A stretch of DNA of 64,000 bases. Source: Deltaproteobacteria bacterium (GTDB lineage: Bacteria > Bdellovibrionota_C > UBA2361 > SZUA-149 > JAITKM01). The stretch's first letter is position 1. Each line of letters begins with the position of its first letter. Where the stretch lies: contig JAITKM010000007.1 in NCBI GenBank assembly GCA_031278395.1, positions 139,805 through 203,804 of the forward strand, given 5' to 3'. Positions 29,863-39,108 of this stretch are shown one piece after another. Position numbers and translations under genes: made by a program. The notes beneath the pieces were generated by a model. It searched no databases and was not told the origin of the DNA. It worked only from the letters and a program-made list of their open reading frames with translations.

Positions 29863-29901
29863 GGTCCCATAGCTCAGTTGGATAGAGCAATTGCCTTCTA
29901 A
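29863..29901 (+). pseudogene. tRNA 5'-half fragment (acceptor, D arm, anticodon loop TCT) duplicating tRNA-Arg(UCU); no T arm
   Basis: ggtcccaTAGCTCAGTTGGATAGAGCAattgcCTTCTAA is a near copy of the first 39 nt of the intact tRNA-Arg 170 bp downstream, and diverges immediately 3' of the anticodon loop. Confidence 0.5.
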
Positions 29902-30033
29902 TCGGAGGTAGACGCGCCGGATGAAGATATAATAAACACGATTAAGCTATATTTTTAGCGAGGTTGTGAAAAGTTTAAAGATGTAAGGAACTGGATAGAA
30001 AAAGATTGAAAACCGTTGAGATATAAGTAAAAT

Positions 30034-30068: not shown

Positions 30069-30145
30069 GGTCCCGTAGCTCAGTTGGATAGAGCAACAGC
30101 CTTCTAAGCTGTGGGTCAGAGGTTCGAATCCTCTCGGGATCACCA
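30069..30145 (+). tRNA. tRNA-Arg (anticodon UCU), with CCA encoded
   Basis: Cloverleaf: acceptor ggtcccg/cgggatc, anticodon stem acagc/gctgt, loop ctTCTaa, T-loop ttcgaat, 3' a-cca. Confidence 0.9.
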
Positions 30146-30209: not shown

Positions 30210-30253
30210 AACAGATTATTAGTCTGTTGCTCTACCAACTGAGCTAATCGCCC
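30210..30253 (-). pseudogene. Second tRNA 5'-half fragment (minus strand); no T arm
   Basis: Minus strand reads gggcgattagctcagttggtagagca-acaga-ctaataa-tctgt, giving acceptor 5' strand, D arm and anticodon arm only. It is in inverted orientation relative to the intact tRNA-Arg. Confidence 0.4.
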
Positions 30254-30372
30254 ATAAAGATTTCCGAGTTTTTTTCTGAATCCATTTCAAAAACTTTTAT
30301 AAAAAGTTAAAAATTACTCGCAATATAAAAATTTATAAGCTAGTATGATAAGGAGTAAAAACGAGAGGAAGC

Positions 30373-31302
30373 ATGAACGCAAATCCGTCATATAAAGAAG
30401 AACTTTTAGTCTCTAGGCCCGTCTTAAAATGGGCGGGGGGTAAAGGTCAATTGCTGGAACAAATCACAGCTCGGTTGCCAAATAAACTTAAAGCTGGTGC
30501 TATTAAAAGATATATTGAACCATTTATTGGTGGTGGAGCTGTTTTTTTTGAAATAGCCAATACTTATTTTTTTAAAGAGGCCTTTTTATTTGATATCAAT
30601 CCGGAACTCGTTATTCTTTACAATGTTATCAAAAACGATGTCAAAAAATTGATTGATGAATTAGAGAATATTCAAGCGGCATATTATAGCTCCCAAGATA
30701 GAAACCTATACTACTATGACCGCCGGGATGAATATAACAAAAACAACAAATTTATTGATGCAAATAAGTATACTTCTGATTTTGTAAGGCGGGCGGCTTT
30801 AACCATTTTTTTAAATCGAACCTGTTTTAATGGACTTTTCAGAGTAAACAAAAAAGGGTTATTTAACGTTCCAGTGGGTCAGTATAAAAATCCAAAAATA
30901 TTAGATGCGGAAAACTTGTTGAATGTATCTGCCGTATTGCAAAATGCAATAATACACCAAGCTGATTTTGCTGTCGCACAAGAATACGCCAACAAAGATA
31001 CTTTTATTTATTATGATCCGCCATATCGGCCAGTTAGGGAAACGTCCAGTTTTAATTCGTATGCCGCCATTGATTTTGATGATGCGGAACAAGAGCGTTT
31101 ACATGATTTGTTTGTTGCGGTTGGGAATAAGAGTGCATTACAAATGCTTTCTAATTCTGACCCGACAAATTACATCTCCGATCCATTTTTTGATGATTTA
31201 TACAAAGGTTTTAAAATAAATCGGGTTATGGCAAAACGTCTTATCAATGCCAATGCTGATGGTCGTAACGAAATCCGCGAATTATTGATTACAAATTATT
31301 AA
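30373..31302 (+). CDS. Dam-like (alpha-class, D12) N6-adenine DNA methyltransferase; M1 of a DpnII/MboI-type R-M system
   Basis: PVLKWAGGKGQLL, motif I YIEPFIGGGAVFF, motif IV IYYDPPY. Confidence 0.85.
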   Translation: MNANPSYKEELLVSRPVLKWAGGKGQLLEQITARLPNKLKAGAIKRYIEPFIGGGAVFFEIANTYFFKEAFLFDINPELVILYNVIKNDVKKLIDELENIQAAYYSSQDRNLYYYDRRDEYNKNNKFIDANKYTSDFVRRAALTIFLNRTCFNGLFRVNKKGLFNVPVGQYKNPKILDAENLLNVSAVLQNAIIHQADFAVAQEYANKDTFIYYDPPYRPVRETSSFNSYAAIDFDDAEQERLHDLFVAVGNKSALQMLSNSDPTNYISDPFFDDLYKGFKINRVMAKRLINANADGRNEIRELLITNY

Positions 31303-31361
31303 AATTTTGTGTTGATTGTTATGTCTGGTTGAAGTATTATTTCTACAAACAGGAATAAAAA

Positions 31362-31703
31362 ATGAATAAATCTGAGTTATTAAAAGATATGACTGACAGC
31401 AAATTTACTATTATTGATGCTGTTGAGGTCGGTCACAAATATCGATTAGCGATATACAAAGGCACTAAAACCGAAAGCATATTTGATTTTGTTGTCAGAT
31501 ATCGTGAAAATTTTAATACTGGTTGGTCTCGTATCCGAACACCTAAGCATGTACACTGGATTGTGGATATTCTGATAAAACGTTCTCATGACCGTGAAGA
31601 AACCTTGCTTTTTGTAAGAGAGTTTGAAAAATTATGGAACTCCATAAAGCCAATAACAATTCAGGGGGAGCTGGATACCTTATTAAGCAGGTTATCGATT
31701 TAA
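31362..31703 (+). CDS. Hypothetical 113-aa protein inserted between the two methyltransferase genes
   Basis: ORF with an RBS (aggaataaaaaatg). It has no HTH-like controller-protein features and no recognisable domain. Confidence 0.4.
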   Translation: MNKSELLKDMTDSKFTIIDAVEVGHKYRLAIYKGTKTESIFDFVVRYRENFNTGWSRIRTPKHVHWIVDILIKRSHDREETLLFVREFEKLWNSIKPITIQGELDTLLSRLSI

Positions 31704-31869
31704 AGATTTCTCCCCACAGCATCAATGAAATCTGACCTCCATGATACAGAATTCTTGTTTAAAATGATGTATCTGATAATGGTTCAAGAAAAAACGAACG
31801 ACCCCACAGGAACTTTAACTAGTGGCATTATTTATAAGTTAAAACATCAAGAAGATTGGTTTGGTTTAT

Positions 31870-32653
31870 TATGAGCGTAAAACCATACAGACTTTATTGT
31901 GCTGACTGTCTGGAACAATTAAAAGAAATTCCAGAAAATACTTTTGATATGATATTCGCAGATCCGCCATATATGCTTTCAAACGGAGGCATAAGCTGTC
32001 AGAGTGGCAAAGTTGTTTCGGTTAACAAAGGTGGCTGGGATAAAAGCCAAGGCTTTGAAAAAGACTTTGAGTTTCACAAACAATGGCTTGAACTTTGCAA
32101 AAGAGTCTTAAAACCTCATGGAACGTTATGGGTTTCTGGAACCTATCACAGCATTTACTCTTGTGGCTTTGCGCTGCAATTGCTCGGATATCATATTTTG
32201 AATGATATTTCTTGGTTCAAACCGAATGCCAGCCCCAATATGTCCTGTCGGTATTTTACCGCCAGCCATGAAACTTTAATTTGGGTTAGAAAAGATAAAG
32301 ATAGCAAACATATCTTCAATTATGAAGCAATGAAGAATGGCAGTTTCCCAAAGGATTTTTTGAAAAAGGCGGATACTCAAATGCGCAGCGTATGGGCGAT
32401 TGGAACGCCAGCCATGTCCGAAAAATCTCATGGAAAACATCCCACACAAAAACCGATAGATTTATTGGAACGCATTATTTTAGCATCTACTAATCCCGGA
32501 GCTTTAATTTTAGATCCATTCATGGGGAGTGGCACGACCGGTGTCGCGGCCATAAAATTAGGCCGGAAATTTGTAGGCATTGAAAAAGAACAACTATTCA
32601 TTGAATTGGCAGAAAAAAGATTGTACGATGCAACTATAAGCGCTGGAGAATAA
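31870..32653 (+). CDS. Beta-class N6-adenine/N4-cytosine DNA methyltransferase (DpnA/M2-like)
   Basis: Motif IV DMIFADPPY lies near the N-terminus and motif I ILDPFMGSGTTGVAA near the C-terminus (beta permutation). The ORF track opens at a TTG (31856); the ATG at ~31870 (MSVKPY) is more likely. Confidence 0.8.
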
Positions 32654-32654
32654 T

Positions 32655-33566
32655 ATGAAGCAAAACCCATCTTTCCAAAAAATATTAAATTGCAAAACCA
32701 GTGATGACGTTTTTGAATGTTTGGTTTCTAACTTGAAGCAAACCATTAAATCTTGGGATTACTTTGTTAATTGGAGCAAGGTTATTAAAAATTACAGGGA
32801 TATTGAAACAAGGCTAAATATCCTCAATACGTTGATTGGCAAGTCTGATATCAAAAAAGAAGCTAAAGAGTTATTGAATAAATATCCAGAAATCATGCCT
32901 ATTGTTCCAGATCTTCTAGCTTATAGAGATAGACAGGTTAATATTCTTTCCGACTTTAAAACTTTTGGTTTTGAAAGCTATGATTTTTCAAAACCTATCA
33001 ATGTTGATAAAGCTGTAAAATTTTTGGATAAAAGCGGATTCCTTAAATTACTTTCGGATAGAAATATCAAATCCATACCGGATTATTTCATTGGTATAGG
33101 GGTTGGATTAGACAGTAATGGTCGCAAAAATCGTAGCGGAACAGCTATGGAGGACATTATCGAATTTTTTGTTAAAGATCTTTGTGATAGAAATGGGTTT
33201 GAATATATTACCCAAGCAACTGCGGATAAAATAAAATCAAAATGGGACAAGACTATTACTGTTAATAAATCCTCAAAGCGAATTGATTTTGCAATTAACA
33301 CTCCGGGAAAACTTTACCTAATTGAAACTAATTTTTATGACGGTGGTGGCTCTAAATTAAAATCGACAGCTGGAGAATATATTGATTCTTACAACCAATG
33401 GACAAACGATGGACATCAATTTATTTGGATTACAGATGGATCTGGCTGGAAATCCACAAGGGGACCGTTAAGAGATACTTTCGATGTGATTGATTACATT
33501 TTGAATATCGATATGGTTCAAAAAGGCATTTTGGAAAATCTAATTATAGAAAAGGATAAGGTGTGA
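32655..33566 (+). CDS. Type II restriction endonuclease, DpnII/MboI (GATC) family-like
   Basis: 303 aa; overlaps the stop of M2. Segments GIGVGLDSNGRKNRSGTAMEDI, YLIETNFYDGGGSKLKSTAGEY and WITDGSGW resemble the DpnII endonuclease family as I recall it; the M1-M2-R gene order matches DpnII/LlaDCHI. Confidence 0.55.
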   Translation: MKQNPSFQKILNCKTSDDVFECLVSNLKQTIKSWDYFVNWSKVIKNYRDIETRLNILNTLIGKSDIKKEAKELLNKYPEIMPIVPDLLAYRDRQVNILSDFKTFGFESYDFSKPINVDKAVKFLDKSGFLKLLSDRNIKSIPDYFIGIGVGLDSNGRKNRSGTAMEDIIEFFVKDLCDRNGFEYITQATADKIKSKWDKTITVNKSSKRIDFAINTPGKLYLIETNFYDGGGSKLKSTAGEYIDSYNQWTNDGHQFIWITDGSGWKSTRGPLRDTFDVIDYILNIDMVQKGILENLIIEKDKV

Positions 33567-34392
33567 GAAAAAATATTGATATCACAGAGCAAGAATATAA
33601 AACCACCATACAAAAATTCTATGAATATTTTGAAAATGGATATCTTTTTGAAAACTTCTTAAAATCGTTTTTAGACAAAATAGGACTTGATGAAATATCT
33701 GTTACTCAACGTTCTCGCGATGGAGGTTTTGATTTAAAAGCATCTCGCTTTGGTGTTGGAGGCTTTAGTGAAGCCGATGCAGTAAATTACTATGTACAAG
33801 CGAAGAAATGTTCTCCAGAACAACGTATATCTGTCAAAGCAATCAGAGAATTAAAGGGCCTTATTCCCTTCGGGCATAAGGGAATTTTTATTACAACTGC
33901 AAAATTTTCCGCTGATGCAGAAAAGGAATCGAATAACGATCCATCAAACCAGTTGTACTTATTGATGGAAAATCTCTTGTTAGCAGCTGTATAGATCATG
34001 AAATAGGTTTTACTTTTAAACCCATATTCAACAAAGCTGCTATGGATGAATTAAAGCAAATTCATTATCCCGAAACATCGGAAGCAGAAGCAAATGAGAA
34101 TGAAAATACACTCGTTGTGGAACGACAAATAACGCTAAACGACATGAGATCTAGAATATTTCCTATTCCCCGCCTAATAAAAGATAATATGCCAGAGGGT
34201 TTATCTAAAATGGATGTATATTTAGAGGATGGGTCAAAAATAACATTGTCTGTCGATAAAGCAGGCCGTTATTTAGCCGGCATAACTAAGCTCTATAAGA
34301 AAGAGGGCTTGATCTTAGAAGACGGAAGCTTTAATCCCAAAAAATCTATCTGGACGTTATCTTCTGGTGTATTAAAGATATCTTTTTCATAA
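33563..34392 (+). pseudogene. Mrr-like (Mrr_cat) restriction endonuclease gene interrupted by a frameshift
   Basis: ORF 33563..33994 carries the Mrr catalytic core (RDGGFDLKAS...YVQAKK...GIFITTAKFSADAE). The continuation (KPVVLIDGKSLVSSCIDHEIGF, the typical Mrr C-terminal block) lies in another frame running into ORF 34042..34392. The shift maps to an A-run near 33945. The start overlaps the REase stop (ATGA), suggesting translational coupling. Confidence 0.5.
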
Positions 34393-34620: not shown

Positions 34621-35526
34621 ATGCGGATAGCAGAGATTAAAATACGAAATTTTAGAAAACTTAAAGAAGTGGTGATAGATTTTCATTCTAAAAAAACCGT
34701 ATTTATTGGTGCAAACAATAGTGGAAAAACAAGCGCTATAACTGCTATGTGTTTATTTTTAGAAGATAACCAAAAATTCTCAACCTATGATTTTCCGTTA
34801 TCAAATCATCTAAAAGTCAATGAACTTTTTGAAAAAGAGGTCGAACCATCAAAACAAGAAGTGGATGGTGTTTTTCCCGCTCTTGATTTATGGTTTTATG
34901 TCGAAGACAAAGATATTCATCATGTAAGCCAGCTATTGCCTACATTAGATTGGACGGGTGGCGACTTAGGAGTTCGTTTGCGATATGAAATAAAAGATAT
35001 TGCTAAATTGTTTAGCGACTATAAAAGCGCTCGAGATAAAATCAAAGGTAAAAATGGCCTATTTCCAAAAGATATGATGGATTACCTTTCAAAAAATCTT
35101 TCCGACCATTTTGAAATTCGTCGTTATGTCCTCGACCCTGCCCAAAAGGCTAAAATCCAAACTCAAGAAACTTTGGGAGAAAAATTAGAAATTAACCCAC
35201 TAGATAACATTCTACGAATAAATACAATTAACGCGCAACGTGGTATGAGTGATGAAGTCGCAGACGCAAAACAATCAGAAAAACAAAAATTAACAGCGTT
35301 AATGACAAAGTATTACACTTCTCATCTTGATCCCAATACAGGAGAAATGACCGAAAAAGATATAAAGGCACTTGAAACATTAAACACGGCAACAGAAGAT
35401 TTTACTAAAAATATGAGAGCCAACTTCAAGCCAGCCTTGGAAGAAATTGCAAAAATTGGATACCCACCTTTTGGAGCACCGGATATTACTATCAACCTTA
35501 TTATATCTACCTTATCAAACAGATAA
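34621..35526 (+). CDS. AAA/ABC-type ATPase N-terminal fragment (OLD/AAA_15-like); probable remnant of a defence gene
   Basis: MRIAEIKIRNFRKL...VFIGANNSGKTSAI (Walker A); 301 aa with no signature motif, Walker B or nuclease domain before the stop. Confidence 0.45.
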   Translation: MRIAEIKIRNFRKLKEVVIDFHSKKTVFIGANNSGKTSAITAMCLFLEDNQKFSTYDFPLSNHLKVNELFEKEVEPSKQEVDGVFPALDLWFYVEDKDIHHVSQLLPTLDWTGGDLGVRLRYEIKDIAKLFSDYKSARDKIKGKNGLFPKDMMDYLSKNLSDHFEIRRYVLDPAQKAKIQTQETLGEKLEINPLDNILRINTINAQRGMSDEVADAKQSEKQKLTALMTKYYTSHLDPNTGEMTEKDIKALETLNTATEDFTKNMRANFKPALEEIAKIGYPPFGAPDITINLIISTLSNR

Positions 35527-37947: not shown

Positions 37948-38088
37948 GTACATAGATGAGATAAAAGAGATGTATGCGGCAAAGTAAAATGCCGAGAAAA
38001 TTCTCAGGTATACACGCCGCCGTCGCAGGAAGAACTCGAAAATTACACAGGGATAACCCTATTACTTCATTTCAGCAGTCCAGACATC

Positions 38089-38340
38089 CGCCAGATTCTC
38101 CGCCTGCTTTATAACAAGCTCTATTGCGGCGGGCTGTTTGTCCGGCGGATAGCCATATTTATTAAGTATCCTTTGGACGCTGACCATAATGCGGGCGCGG
38201 AGCTGTCTCTTTGATGGCAAAGTCAATGGTCGCGTTTTTTCTGACCTTGTCCGCTATCTTGCGGACGATTTCCCGAGGCTGCCCTTATTCCATAAAGTCG
38301 AGTGGTTGCCCGTTCAGCGTTGACTTTACCTCTCTCCACA
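38089..38340 (-). pseudogene. hsdR: hsdR (Type I restriction subunit) C-terminal remnant with frameshifts
   Basis: Minus-strand frames give ...LNKYGYPPDKQPAAIELVIKQAENLADVWTAEMK* and, after a shift, REIVRKIADKVRKNATIDFAIKETA, matching the HsdR C-terminal domain; the N-terminal ~90% is missing. Confidence 0.5.
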
Positions 38341-38375
38341 TTGGCATATATTTATCCATTAAAGCGACAAACTTT

Positions 38376-38831
38376 TTATTGTGCTTTTTTCTCAACAAGG
38401 TGAACTAATTCGTGGATAACGACGTATTCGAGGCTTTCCGGCGTTTTCTTGGCAAGCTGTGTGTTCAGCCTATTTTTCCTGTGTTTGTGTTGCTCGTTCC
38501 CCAACGGGTGGTCATGTATTTGGTTTGCCACGTTGAAGTGCGCGTTATCTATAATCCCTCGGAGGTTGTTCGCCTCGGCAAGGCGGGCGATGACTTTATC
38601 CATTTCTTCGCCGATGTTCTTATTGCCGATAAGCGCAAGCATATCATCAAAACTCCCGCCTTCGGGAACGTCGATGTCGCCGTATGCCACGCCTTTGAAC
38701 TTGTCCGACACATACTTCACGAACAAAAGCGTCAGTATGTAATCTTTGTATTGTGAACTGTCCATGCCGCCGCGCAAGCTGTCGCAGCTTACCCAAAGGC
38801 TTGAATAGAGTTCACTTTTCTTGACCGCCAT
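38376..38831 (-). pseudogene. hsdM: In-frame chimera of an HsdM N-terminal domain (~100 aa) and a DUF45/YgjP-like metallohydrolase C-terminus
   Basis: N-terminus MAVKKSELYSSLWVSCDSLRGGMDSSQYKDYILTLLFVKYVSDKF matches HsdM_N; C-terminus PESLEYVVIHELVHLVEKK matches the DUF45 HExxH region; the methyltransferase catalytic domain is absent. Confidence 0.55.
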
Positions 38832-39108
38832 TAGCTATCCCTCCGAGTTGTGCATCTATATAAGAATTAGTGCGCTGTTAGTTTTCTTCAGCGCTCTCGC
38901 CGGAAATTAAGTAACTGCCCAGTTCAGGCGTGTATATGTTAAATGCTCGGGGTGAGGGGGGCGTTTGTTGAACCATCCCCTCGGAAAACAGTCAGCATTA
39001 ATCTCGCGAGGCACGAATGTATAACCTCCTAACCGAATAAGTGATCGATTGGTCGAGTCGCAATAATGACACGCGGCGCTTGATACACTAAGAGTGTAAT
39101 TCTGTAAA

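Follow-up and report, generated by a model that had tools for sequence, protein, structure and literature searches.

The closest described relatives of the locus analyzed here are LlaDCHI, which we take to be the characterized GATC-specific restriction-modification (R-M) system encoded by pSRQ700 of Lactococcus lactis, and DpnII of Streptococcus pneumoniae, both of which consist of three co-directional, tightly packed genes for an alpha-class methylase, a beta-class methylase and a DpnII-family endonuclease. The same trio is present in a 64-kb window (the whole stretch of DNA that was analyzed; all coordinates below are positions in it unless a locus is named) from an NCBI metagenome-assembled genome of a Deltaproteobacteria bacterium (locus tags LBE20_). 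Whereas pSRQ700 carries only the methylase genes M1 (Dam-like) and M2 (beta-class) followed by the endonuclease gene R, the operon in the window additionally contains, in the gap that separates M1 from M2, orfX (X) and, coupled to the end of R, another nuclease gene, here called the second nuclease gene (N). The open reading frame (ORF) list places all five genes of the first-pass annotation within positions 30373-34392, co-directional on the + strand, in the order M1-orfX-M2-R-Mrr_cat gene. We consider it likely (probability of about 0.6 for the explanation as a whole) that this is a small defence island adjacent to tRNA-Arg(TCT), in which the DpnII/LlaDCHI-type GATC R-M core is intact, and orfX and the second endonuclease are broken accessory genes. 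The core system is of a known kind; the uncharacterized part consists of the orfX family and the family of the second nuclease, here denoted Mrr-B3 after its two predicted domains.

M1 (30373..31302) is a Dam-like, alpha-class N6-adenine DNA methyltransferase (Pfam MethyltransfD12, PF02086, E-value 6.8e-58, profile positions 1-251 of 253; NCBIfam TIGR00571 dam, 8.6e-81) whose translation contains the DPPY and FxGxG motifs. M2 (31871..32653) is a beta-class, DpnA-like N6-adenine DNA methyltransferase (Pfam N6_N4_Mtase, PF01555, 8.5e-61, profile positions 2-221 of 221; PADLOC MTase_II, 1.4e-97) with its true start at the ATG at 31871, and R (32655..33566) is a Type II restriction endonuclease of the DpnII family (Pfam DpnII, PF04556, 2.7e-94, nearly the whole profile, positions 2-277 of 278; PADLOC REase_II, 9e-94). 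The products of the trio are identical, end to end, to those of L. lactis pSRQ700 at 39% (M1), 52% (M2) and 40% (R) of positions. These matches bear out the DpnII/LlaDCHI-type architecture and the DpnII-family assignment of the endonuclease that had been proposed from the letters alone; the overlap of the R start with the M2 stop that had been proposed along with them does not exist, given that the TAA of M2 (32651-32653) and the ATG of R (32655) lie 1 nt apart. R ends with TGA. All three genes are apparently intact and the core trio is probably still active, in which case M1 and M2 would methylate the adenine of GATC, and R would cut unmethylated GATC in incoming DNA. Under-representation of GATC in the window (observed/expected ratio of 0.60) fits with GATC restriction operating now or in the past. 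GTAC is far more depleted than GATC (24 sites observed vs 84.6 expected, a ratio of 0.28), a hint that the genome may encode a restriction system specific for GTAC.

The gap between the two methylase genes had been described as holding a 113-aa ORF with no recognizable domain. Indeed, orfX has no match in Pfam, NCBIfam, PADLOC or PHROGs, but the 113-aa ORF is not a complete gene. It spans 31362..31703 (match to the family hidden Markov model [HMM], 8.3e-35) and ends at a premature in-frame TAA (31701-31703), beyond which the same frame continues through 31704..31874 with a further match to the family HMM (5.7e-12). This C-terminal piece was called as a 49-aa ORF (31725-31874) that begins with an ATG at 31725, 21 nt past the TAA, and whose TGA overlaps the ATG of M2 as ATGA. 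A search with the 170-aa read-through as the query identified 57 proteins which, apart from the 113-aa fragment of the window itself, are mostly 160-187 aa long and cover 86-100% of the query (88-100% for homologs of 169-187 aa); the closest homologs are P0002 (169 aa, 59% identical) and P0003 (175 aa, 49% identical). The family alignment contains two invariant blocks, WSRIRTPKHxHW and LLMVQEKTN, the second of which falls in the 49-aa piece; conserved residues include R59, K62, H63, H65, D69, E142 and K143. At the DNA level, the TAA of the window is aligned with a GAA of L098 (M1-X-M2), the closest locus with an intact orfX, so that a single substitution is enough to explain the stop. Thus, orfX of the window is a pseudogene, a gene of about 170 codons split by a nonsense codon. 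An alternative genetic code was excluded as the source of the in-frame stop because that stop is TAA and other genes of the window end normally at TAA and TGA stops, for example M2 with TAA and R with TGA. The premature stop would end translation 170 nt ahead of the M2 start and may weaken the translational coupling of M2.

The second nuclease gene starts with a GTG at 33563 that overlaps the stop codon of R as GTGA; hence the overlap noted in the first-pass annotation is real, although its sequence is not ATGA as given there. As called, the Mrr_cat ORF runs from 33563 to 33994 and is out of frame beyond 33946. The N-terminal part (33563..33946) encodes an Mrr/MspJI-type PD-(D/E)xK (D...QxK) cleavage domain (Pfam Mrr_cat, 1.5e-16), in agreement with the earlier assignment, and the C-terminal part (33946..34392, -1 frame) covers the remainder of the nuclease domain, followed by a linker and a B3-like DNA-binding pseudobarrel, and was called as a 116-aa ORF (34042-34392). 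In tblastn comparisons, full-length homologs align with frame 1 from 33563 to 33946 (...ESNNDPS), at 65-75% identity to the N-terminal part, and then with frame 3 from 33946 (KPVVLIDGKSL...). The site of the frameshift (33944..33948) reads tcaAAAcca where the homologs need S-K-P. The family consensus over this site, NDPSKPIILIDGK, indicates the loss of one A from tcaAAAAcca (A4 to A3, ~33945-33947), which we consider the most parsimonious frameshift event. A reconstruction of ~277 aa matched more than 365 proteins, and the listed homologs, of ~280 aa, cover it over 96-100%. The earlier proposal that the gene is split by a frameshift is thus upheld, and the two Mrr-like ORFs are parts of a single gene. 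The same lesions are present in an independent Logan assembly of run SRR14710901 (L099), which is 99.98% identical to the window over 9,907 nt, with 2 single-nucleotide polymorphisms (SNPs), and repeats its gene calls (309/113/49/260/303/143/116/301 aa); assembly artefacts are therefore unlikely.

A profile search of the PDB with the nuclease domain revealed similarity to MspJI (9.3e-09) and AspBHI. The Mrr_N winged helix was not found in the second nuclease by Pfam search, and no SRA-like reader of modified bases is present N-terminal to the nuclease domain. In the AlphaFold2 (AF2) model of the closest homolog (P0058, 58% identical), which has a predicted local distance difference test (pLDDT) score of 85.5, two well-predicted domains are connected by a disordered linker, and a structure search with this model yielded the B3-like recognition domains of LlaJI.R1 (7.8), BfiI (7.2), EcoRII (7.1 and 6.7), NgoAVII (6.9) and UbaLAI (5.7). 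Modeling of this homolog accordingly predicts, for the second nuclease, an N-terminal cleavage domain of the MspJI/Mrr type and, at the C-terminus, a B3-like domain that binds DNA. The B3-like domains of restriction enzymes have been described as reading unmodified sequence (PMC12065111), and passages of two further papers treat them in the same way (PMC3973309, PMC5766183). We also considered the possibility that the Mrr-like protein is a GATC enzyme of the MboI family and rejected it because MboI has been assigned to the SsoII/NgoMIV/EcoRII-C structural framework (PMC4081073) and no PADLOC REase_II model matches the protein.

The genomic neighborhoods of the second nuclease were surveyed by scanning one genome per GTDB species, which yielded 95 confirmed relatives; the counts that follow refer to the best 80 of these 95 loci, with gene arrangements scored by tblastn with the window proteins within 3.5 kb. 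The closest homolog is located in a DpnII-type operon with the order M1-nuclease-R-M2, and 60 of the 80 loci contain a Dam-like M1, an M2 and/or a DpnII-family R. The recurrent arrangements are M1-N-R (16/80), M1-M2-N-R (12/80, plus 4 with an extra upstream M2-like match), M2-N-R (5/80) and M1-R-N (4/80), whereas 14 of the 80 loci encode a methylase but no DpnII-family R in the examined sequence. One of the latter, L084 (4464-8754), has the order HTH_3 protein, N, a 372-aa D12 methylase and an AlwI-family endonuclease; AlwI recognizes GGATC. In L015 (4105-8193), N is flanked on one side by a DUF7004 protein and on the other side by a D12 methylase followed by a protein with DUF6996, DUF6997 and DUF7226, which may be another uncharacterized nuclease partner. 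The remaining 20 copies are solitary, several of them at contig ends; these include copies in Haemophilus, Actinobacillus and Gallibacterium, and one solitary copy is adjacent to a toxin-antitoxin pair. The Pasteurellaceae, to which these three lineages belong, are Dam-positive. Intact homologs include P0058 and the copy of Roseburia hominis An869 in L027.

Given the presence of intact copies in operons with Dam-like methylases and in Dam-positive lineages, an enzyme that requires adenine-methylated GATC (G6mATC) could not persist there, and the view of a self-conflicting system loses its support. The last gene had been read as a modification-dependent, Type IV-like enzyme; the B3-like recognition domain and the coexistence of intact copies with Dam-like methylases in 60 of 80 species speak against that reading, and the protein is probably not a methylation-dependent Type IV enzyme. 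Judging from its fold and its operon partners, it appears most likely that the second nuclease is an endonuclease linked to GATC that is blocked by the N6-methyladenine (m6A) methylation of its own operon. The ancestral enzyme would have bound an unmethylated GATC-containing site via the B3 domain, leaving cleavage to the Mrr-type domain, which possibly cut some way from the site, as is the case for MspJI-type domains.

For orfX, a profile search of 1.84 billion representative proteins (cut-off E<=0.001) produced a family of 320 clusters. No PDB sequence match was detected at E<=10, and no relatives were found in a scan of IMG/VR. The AF2 model is confident (pLDDT 87) and has no convincing fold match in the PDB or among viral structures; no helix-turn-helix (HTH) family was detected by Pfam or NCBIfam for orfX or its homologs. 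The gene is found in several operon orders, namely M1-X-M2-R (the window and L098), M1-R-X-M2 (L001-L004, L094-L095), M1-M2-X-R (L005), M1-X-R (L097) and X-M2-MutH-like (L096). A metagenome scan added 80 loci beyond those first collected, and in 76 of these X is next to a Dam-like or beta-class methylase and/or an endonuclease (DpnII-family or MutH-like); at least 37 have the order M1-R-X-M2, at least 11 combine X with a MutH-family nuclease, and at least six gene orders are represented. In one locus first scored as a lone X, a divergent N6_N4 methylase abuts X directly upstream. Fusion proteins with X include P0282 (462 aa), in which X is attached to the C-terminal end of a D12 Dam-like methylase, P0321 (388 aa), in which its partner is a TIR domain, and P0186, which has a Cys-rich N-terminal extension.

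In a separate set of orfX operons, the place of the DpnII-family endonuclease is taken by a MutH-family nuclease of ~205 aa, and the accompanying methylase is of the N6_N4 or D12 type (L096 3580-4197; L113 3287-3922; ~11 loci among L128-L181). In L005 (7481-9817), a gene for a 778-aa AAA_13 ATPase overlaps the end of the endonuclease gene of an orfX-containing DpnII-type operon, and thus represents a further accessory gene coupled to R. The occurrence of X beside adenine methylases with either a DpnII-family or a MutH-family nuclease ties it to adenine-methylase/GATC modules whatever the nuclease fold. The family is a conserved partner of GATC-type R-M operons, located almost exclusively beside adenine methylases, which agrees with the earlier suggestion of an accessory protein. 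Our best guess, and the weakest part of the explanation, is that X is a DNA-binding accessory or regulatory module on the methylase side, which it would have supported or controlled. Among the other loci compared (L001-L098), orfX and the second nuclease were not seen together; from its gene remnants, the window operon can be predicted to have once held both.

The operon begins 228 nt past tRNA-Arg(TCT) (30069..30145, + strand; ARAGORN; Rfam tRNA, 71.9 bits), which forms the left border of the island; the contig of the second assembly ends inside this tRNA gene. Positions 29863-29908, which lie 206 nt upstream of the intact tRNA-Arg gene, form a 46-nt partial copy of its 5' half (87% identical), and a tRNA-like fragment in inverted orientation (30211-30257) is located just downstream of the gene; these copies are probably scars of integration or excision at tRNA-Arg. 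A direct-repeat search revealed no convincing att-like repeat at the right end of the island, the 46-nt partial copy being the only repeat found. An Rfam scan of 28-40 kb identified nothing beyond two tRNAs, and promoter and terminator counts in the island are no higher than in shuffled controls. Downstream of the second nuclease is a truncated gene for a Gabija GajA-like ATPase (34621..35526, + strand), which encodes the N-terminal 301 aa (PADLOC GajA, 1.1e-87, profile positions 1-317 of 736; Pfam AAA_15, profile positions 1-291 of 374) and breaks off ~100 nt before rpmG (minus strand, from 35626). Unlike a Gabija system, of which it matches the N-terminal ATPase half of GajA, this ORF lacks the TOPRIM half and has no adjacent GajB, with rpmG coming next. 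The GajA remnant is a neighbouring defence gene outside the R-M operon. Damage to three of the six defence genes shows an island in the course of erosion, and this accounts for the frameshift in the nuclease gene without invoking conflict. Further to the right, positions 38000-39000 form a GC-rich patch (0.47-0.49 vs ~0.33 around it) in which Rfam detects no RNA; a 151-aa ORF on the minus strand of this patch (38376-38831) has HsdM_N and YgjP-like matches and may represent part of a Type I R-M gene.

Several observations weigh against parts of this explanation. The GATC specificity of every component is predicted from homology and context, and the B3 assignment comes from the model of a homolog with 58% identity, not from the window protein. 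The nuclease domain is nearest to modification-dependent enzymes (MspJI, AspBHI and the PADLOC mREase_II and mREase_IV models), with no match to the PADLOC REase_II models, and 20 of the 80 second nuclease loci have no methylase in the examined sequence. The proposed role of orfX has no backing from any fold or motif match, and the usual lack of an upstream intergenic region of its own is contrary to what is expected of a classical controller of the C-protein type. Finally, the two assemblies that share the lesions possibly come from the same or closely related samples, so that a systematic read error is formally possible.

It is conceivable, though we consider it improbable, that orfX is a C-protein-like transcriptional controller that times the expression of the endonuclease. 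As is the case for the C proteins of Type II R-M systems, X is encoded by a small additional ORF that is conserved within R-M operons; a separate HTH controller gene was not seen in the X-containing operons, a fusion of X with a methylase exists, and some methylases carry regulator domains. However, X differs from the C proteins in having no detectable HTH or other DNA-binding family, no match in Pfam or NCBIfam, a position that varies within the operon, and usual translational coupling. It mostly overlaps or abuts its neighbors, with no promoter region or operator of its own; a fold search with the X model yields no regulator, and fusion to a TIR effector domain would be odd for an operon-specific repressor. 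The absence of an HTH, together with overlap with the neighbors in place of an own promoter region, makes a classical C-protein role unlikely.

About equally doubtful, although it retains some weight, is the possibility that the second nuclease is directed at modifications distinct from G6mATC, such as modified cytosines of phage DNA, and accompanies the GATC R-M genes as a complementary defence that does not have their specificity. The greatest similarity of its nuclease domain to those of MspJI and AspBHI would fit such a role, as would the lack of a REase_II match, the 20 solitary loci among the 80, including the one beside a toxin-antitoxin pair, and the general tendency of defence genes to cluster, for which the adjacent GajA remnant is an example. 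Against it stands the specificity of the association: the nuclease is linked to Dam-like/GATC-type modules in 60 of the 80 loci, inside the operon and often between M and R, with genes that overlap or nearly abut. Moreover, the B3-like domains of characterized restriction enzymes read unmodified sequence (PMC12065111; in the same sense, a passage of PMC3973309). We favor an endonuclease blocked by the methylation of its own operon over one directed at foreign modifications.

It is very unlikely that both lesions, the premature TAA and the frameshift, arose through errors of sequencing or assembly and that all five genes are functional in the organism. Such errors would be conceivable in a metagenome-assembled genome, and the frameshift does fall in a short run of A. 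Nevertheless, an independently built assembly, 2 SNPs apart, contains the same lesions; one of these is a base substitution (GAA/TAA), which is atypical for an assembly error, the A3/A4 run is too short for common homopolymer miscalls, and the adjacent GajA gene is likewise truncated, in this case by deletion. Least credible of all is the proposal of the first-pass annotation that the last gene encoded a Type IV-like, methylation-dependent Mrr nuclease that conflicted with the GATC methylases and was inactivated by selection, because, although Pfam Mrr_cat and the PADLOC mREase_II and mREase_IV models match its domain, the nearest solved nuclease domains are those of the modification-dependent MspJI and AspBHI, and the gene is indeed broken in the window, the protein has no Mrr_N or SRA-type reader and its non-catalytic domain is B3-like, dozens of species keep intact copies between Dam-like methylase and DpnII genes, further copies occur in the generally Dam-positive Pasteurellaceae, and the general decay that also broke orfX and the GajA gene suffices to account for the lesion.

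For the biology of this particular genome the implications of a decaying island with an apparently intact GATC core are modest, the interest being in the families and not in the broken copies. A Pfam match to Mrr_cat alone is not sufficient to call a protein a methylation-dependent Type IV enzyme, and the analysis corrects this tempting mis-annotation. If the family of the second nuclease consists of GATC endonucleases that are blocked by methylation and have a new combination of domains, two unrelated nucleases would act against one methylation mark in many gut Firmicutes, in Fusobacterium and in other bacteria, and such two-nuclease GATC systems would bear on phage and plasmid host range and on genetic tractability. 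Going further, we tentatively entertain, while regarding it as rather less likely than not to hold in full, a joint reading in which the Mrr-B3 nuclease represents a new class of methylation-blocked endonucleases and orfX a GATC-sensing or GATC-binding module with a new fold, both being dedicated parts of GATC R-M systems. Should this be the case, there would be two-nuclease GATC systems, and some genomes would have Mrr-B3 as the sole nuclease partner of a Dam-like methylase. The orfX module, which is also found fused to a Dam-like methylase or to a TIR effector, would sense or bind GATC DNA, possibly its methylation state, and adjust the balance between methylation and restriction; no locus in this comparison apart from the window would once have combined both families. 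In any event, orfX is a well-defined target for discovering a further accessory function in a restriction system that is among the best studied.

Neither the five-gene form of the operon nor either accessory family is described in the family libraries or the literature searched, and we found no description of an Mrr+B3 GATC enzyme or of a two-nuclease DpnII operon in the searchable literature. A cassette with two endonucleases has a reported precedent: Sekizaki et al. (2001; cited in PMC5198162) are said to have described SsuDAT1I of Streptococcus suis, which reportedly combines two methylases with two GATC endonucleases. Both of those endonucleases are reportedly DpnII/LlaDCHI-like, whereas the second nuclease in the window is an unrelated protein of the predicted Mrr-type plus B3 architecture. 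With the Type IV enzyme Mrr, the second nuclease shares the Mrr_cat PD-(D/E)xK domain; compared with Mrr and with the Type IIM enzymes MspJI and AspBHI, it has no Mrr_N winged helix, no SRA-like reader and a reversed domain order, and its context, next to a Dam-like methylase of its own, is incompatible with dependence on G6mATC. With the B3-domain enzymes (the N-domain of EcoRII, the C-domain of BfiI, R.NgoAVII, UbaLAI and LlaJI.R1), it shares the predicted B3-like DNA-binding pseudobarrel. In these enzymes, cleavage depends on a phospholipase D (PLD) domain (BfiI, NgoAVII), a PD-ExK domain of the EcoRII-C type or a McrBC-like GTPase partner, whereas the cleavage module of the second nuclease is an N-terminal PD-(D/E)xK domain of the Mrr/MspJI type and its genomic partner is a Dam-like GATC methylase.

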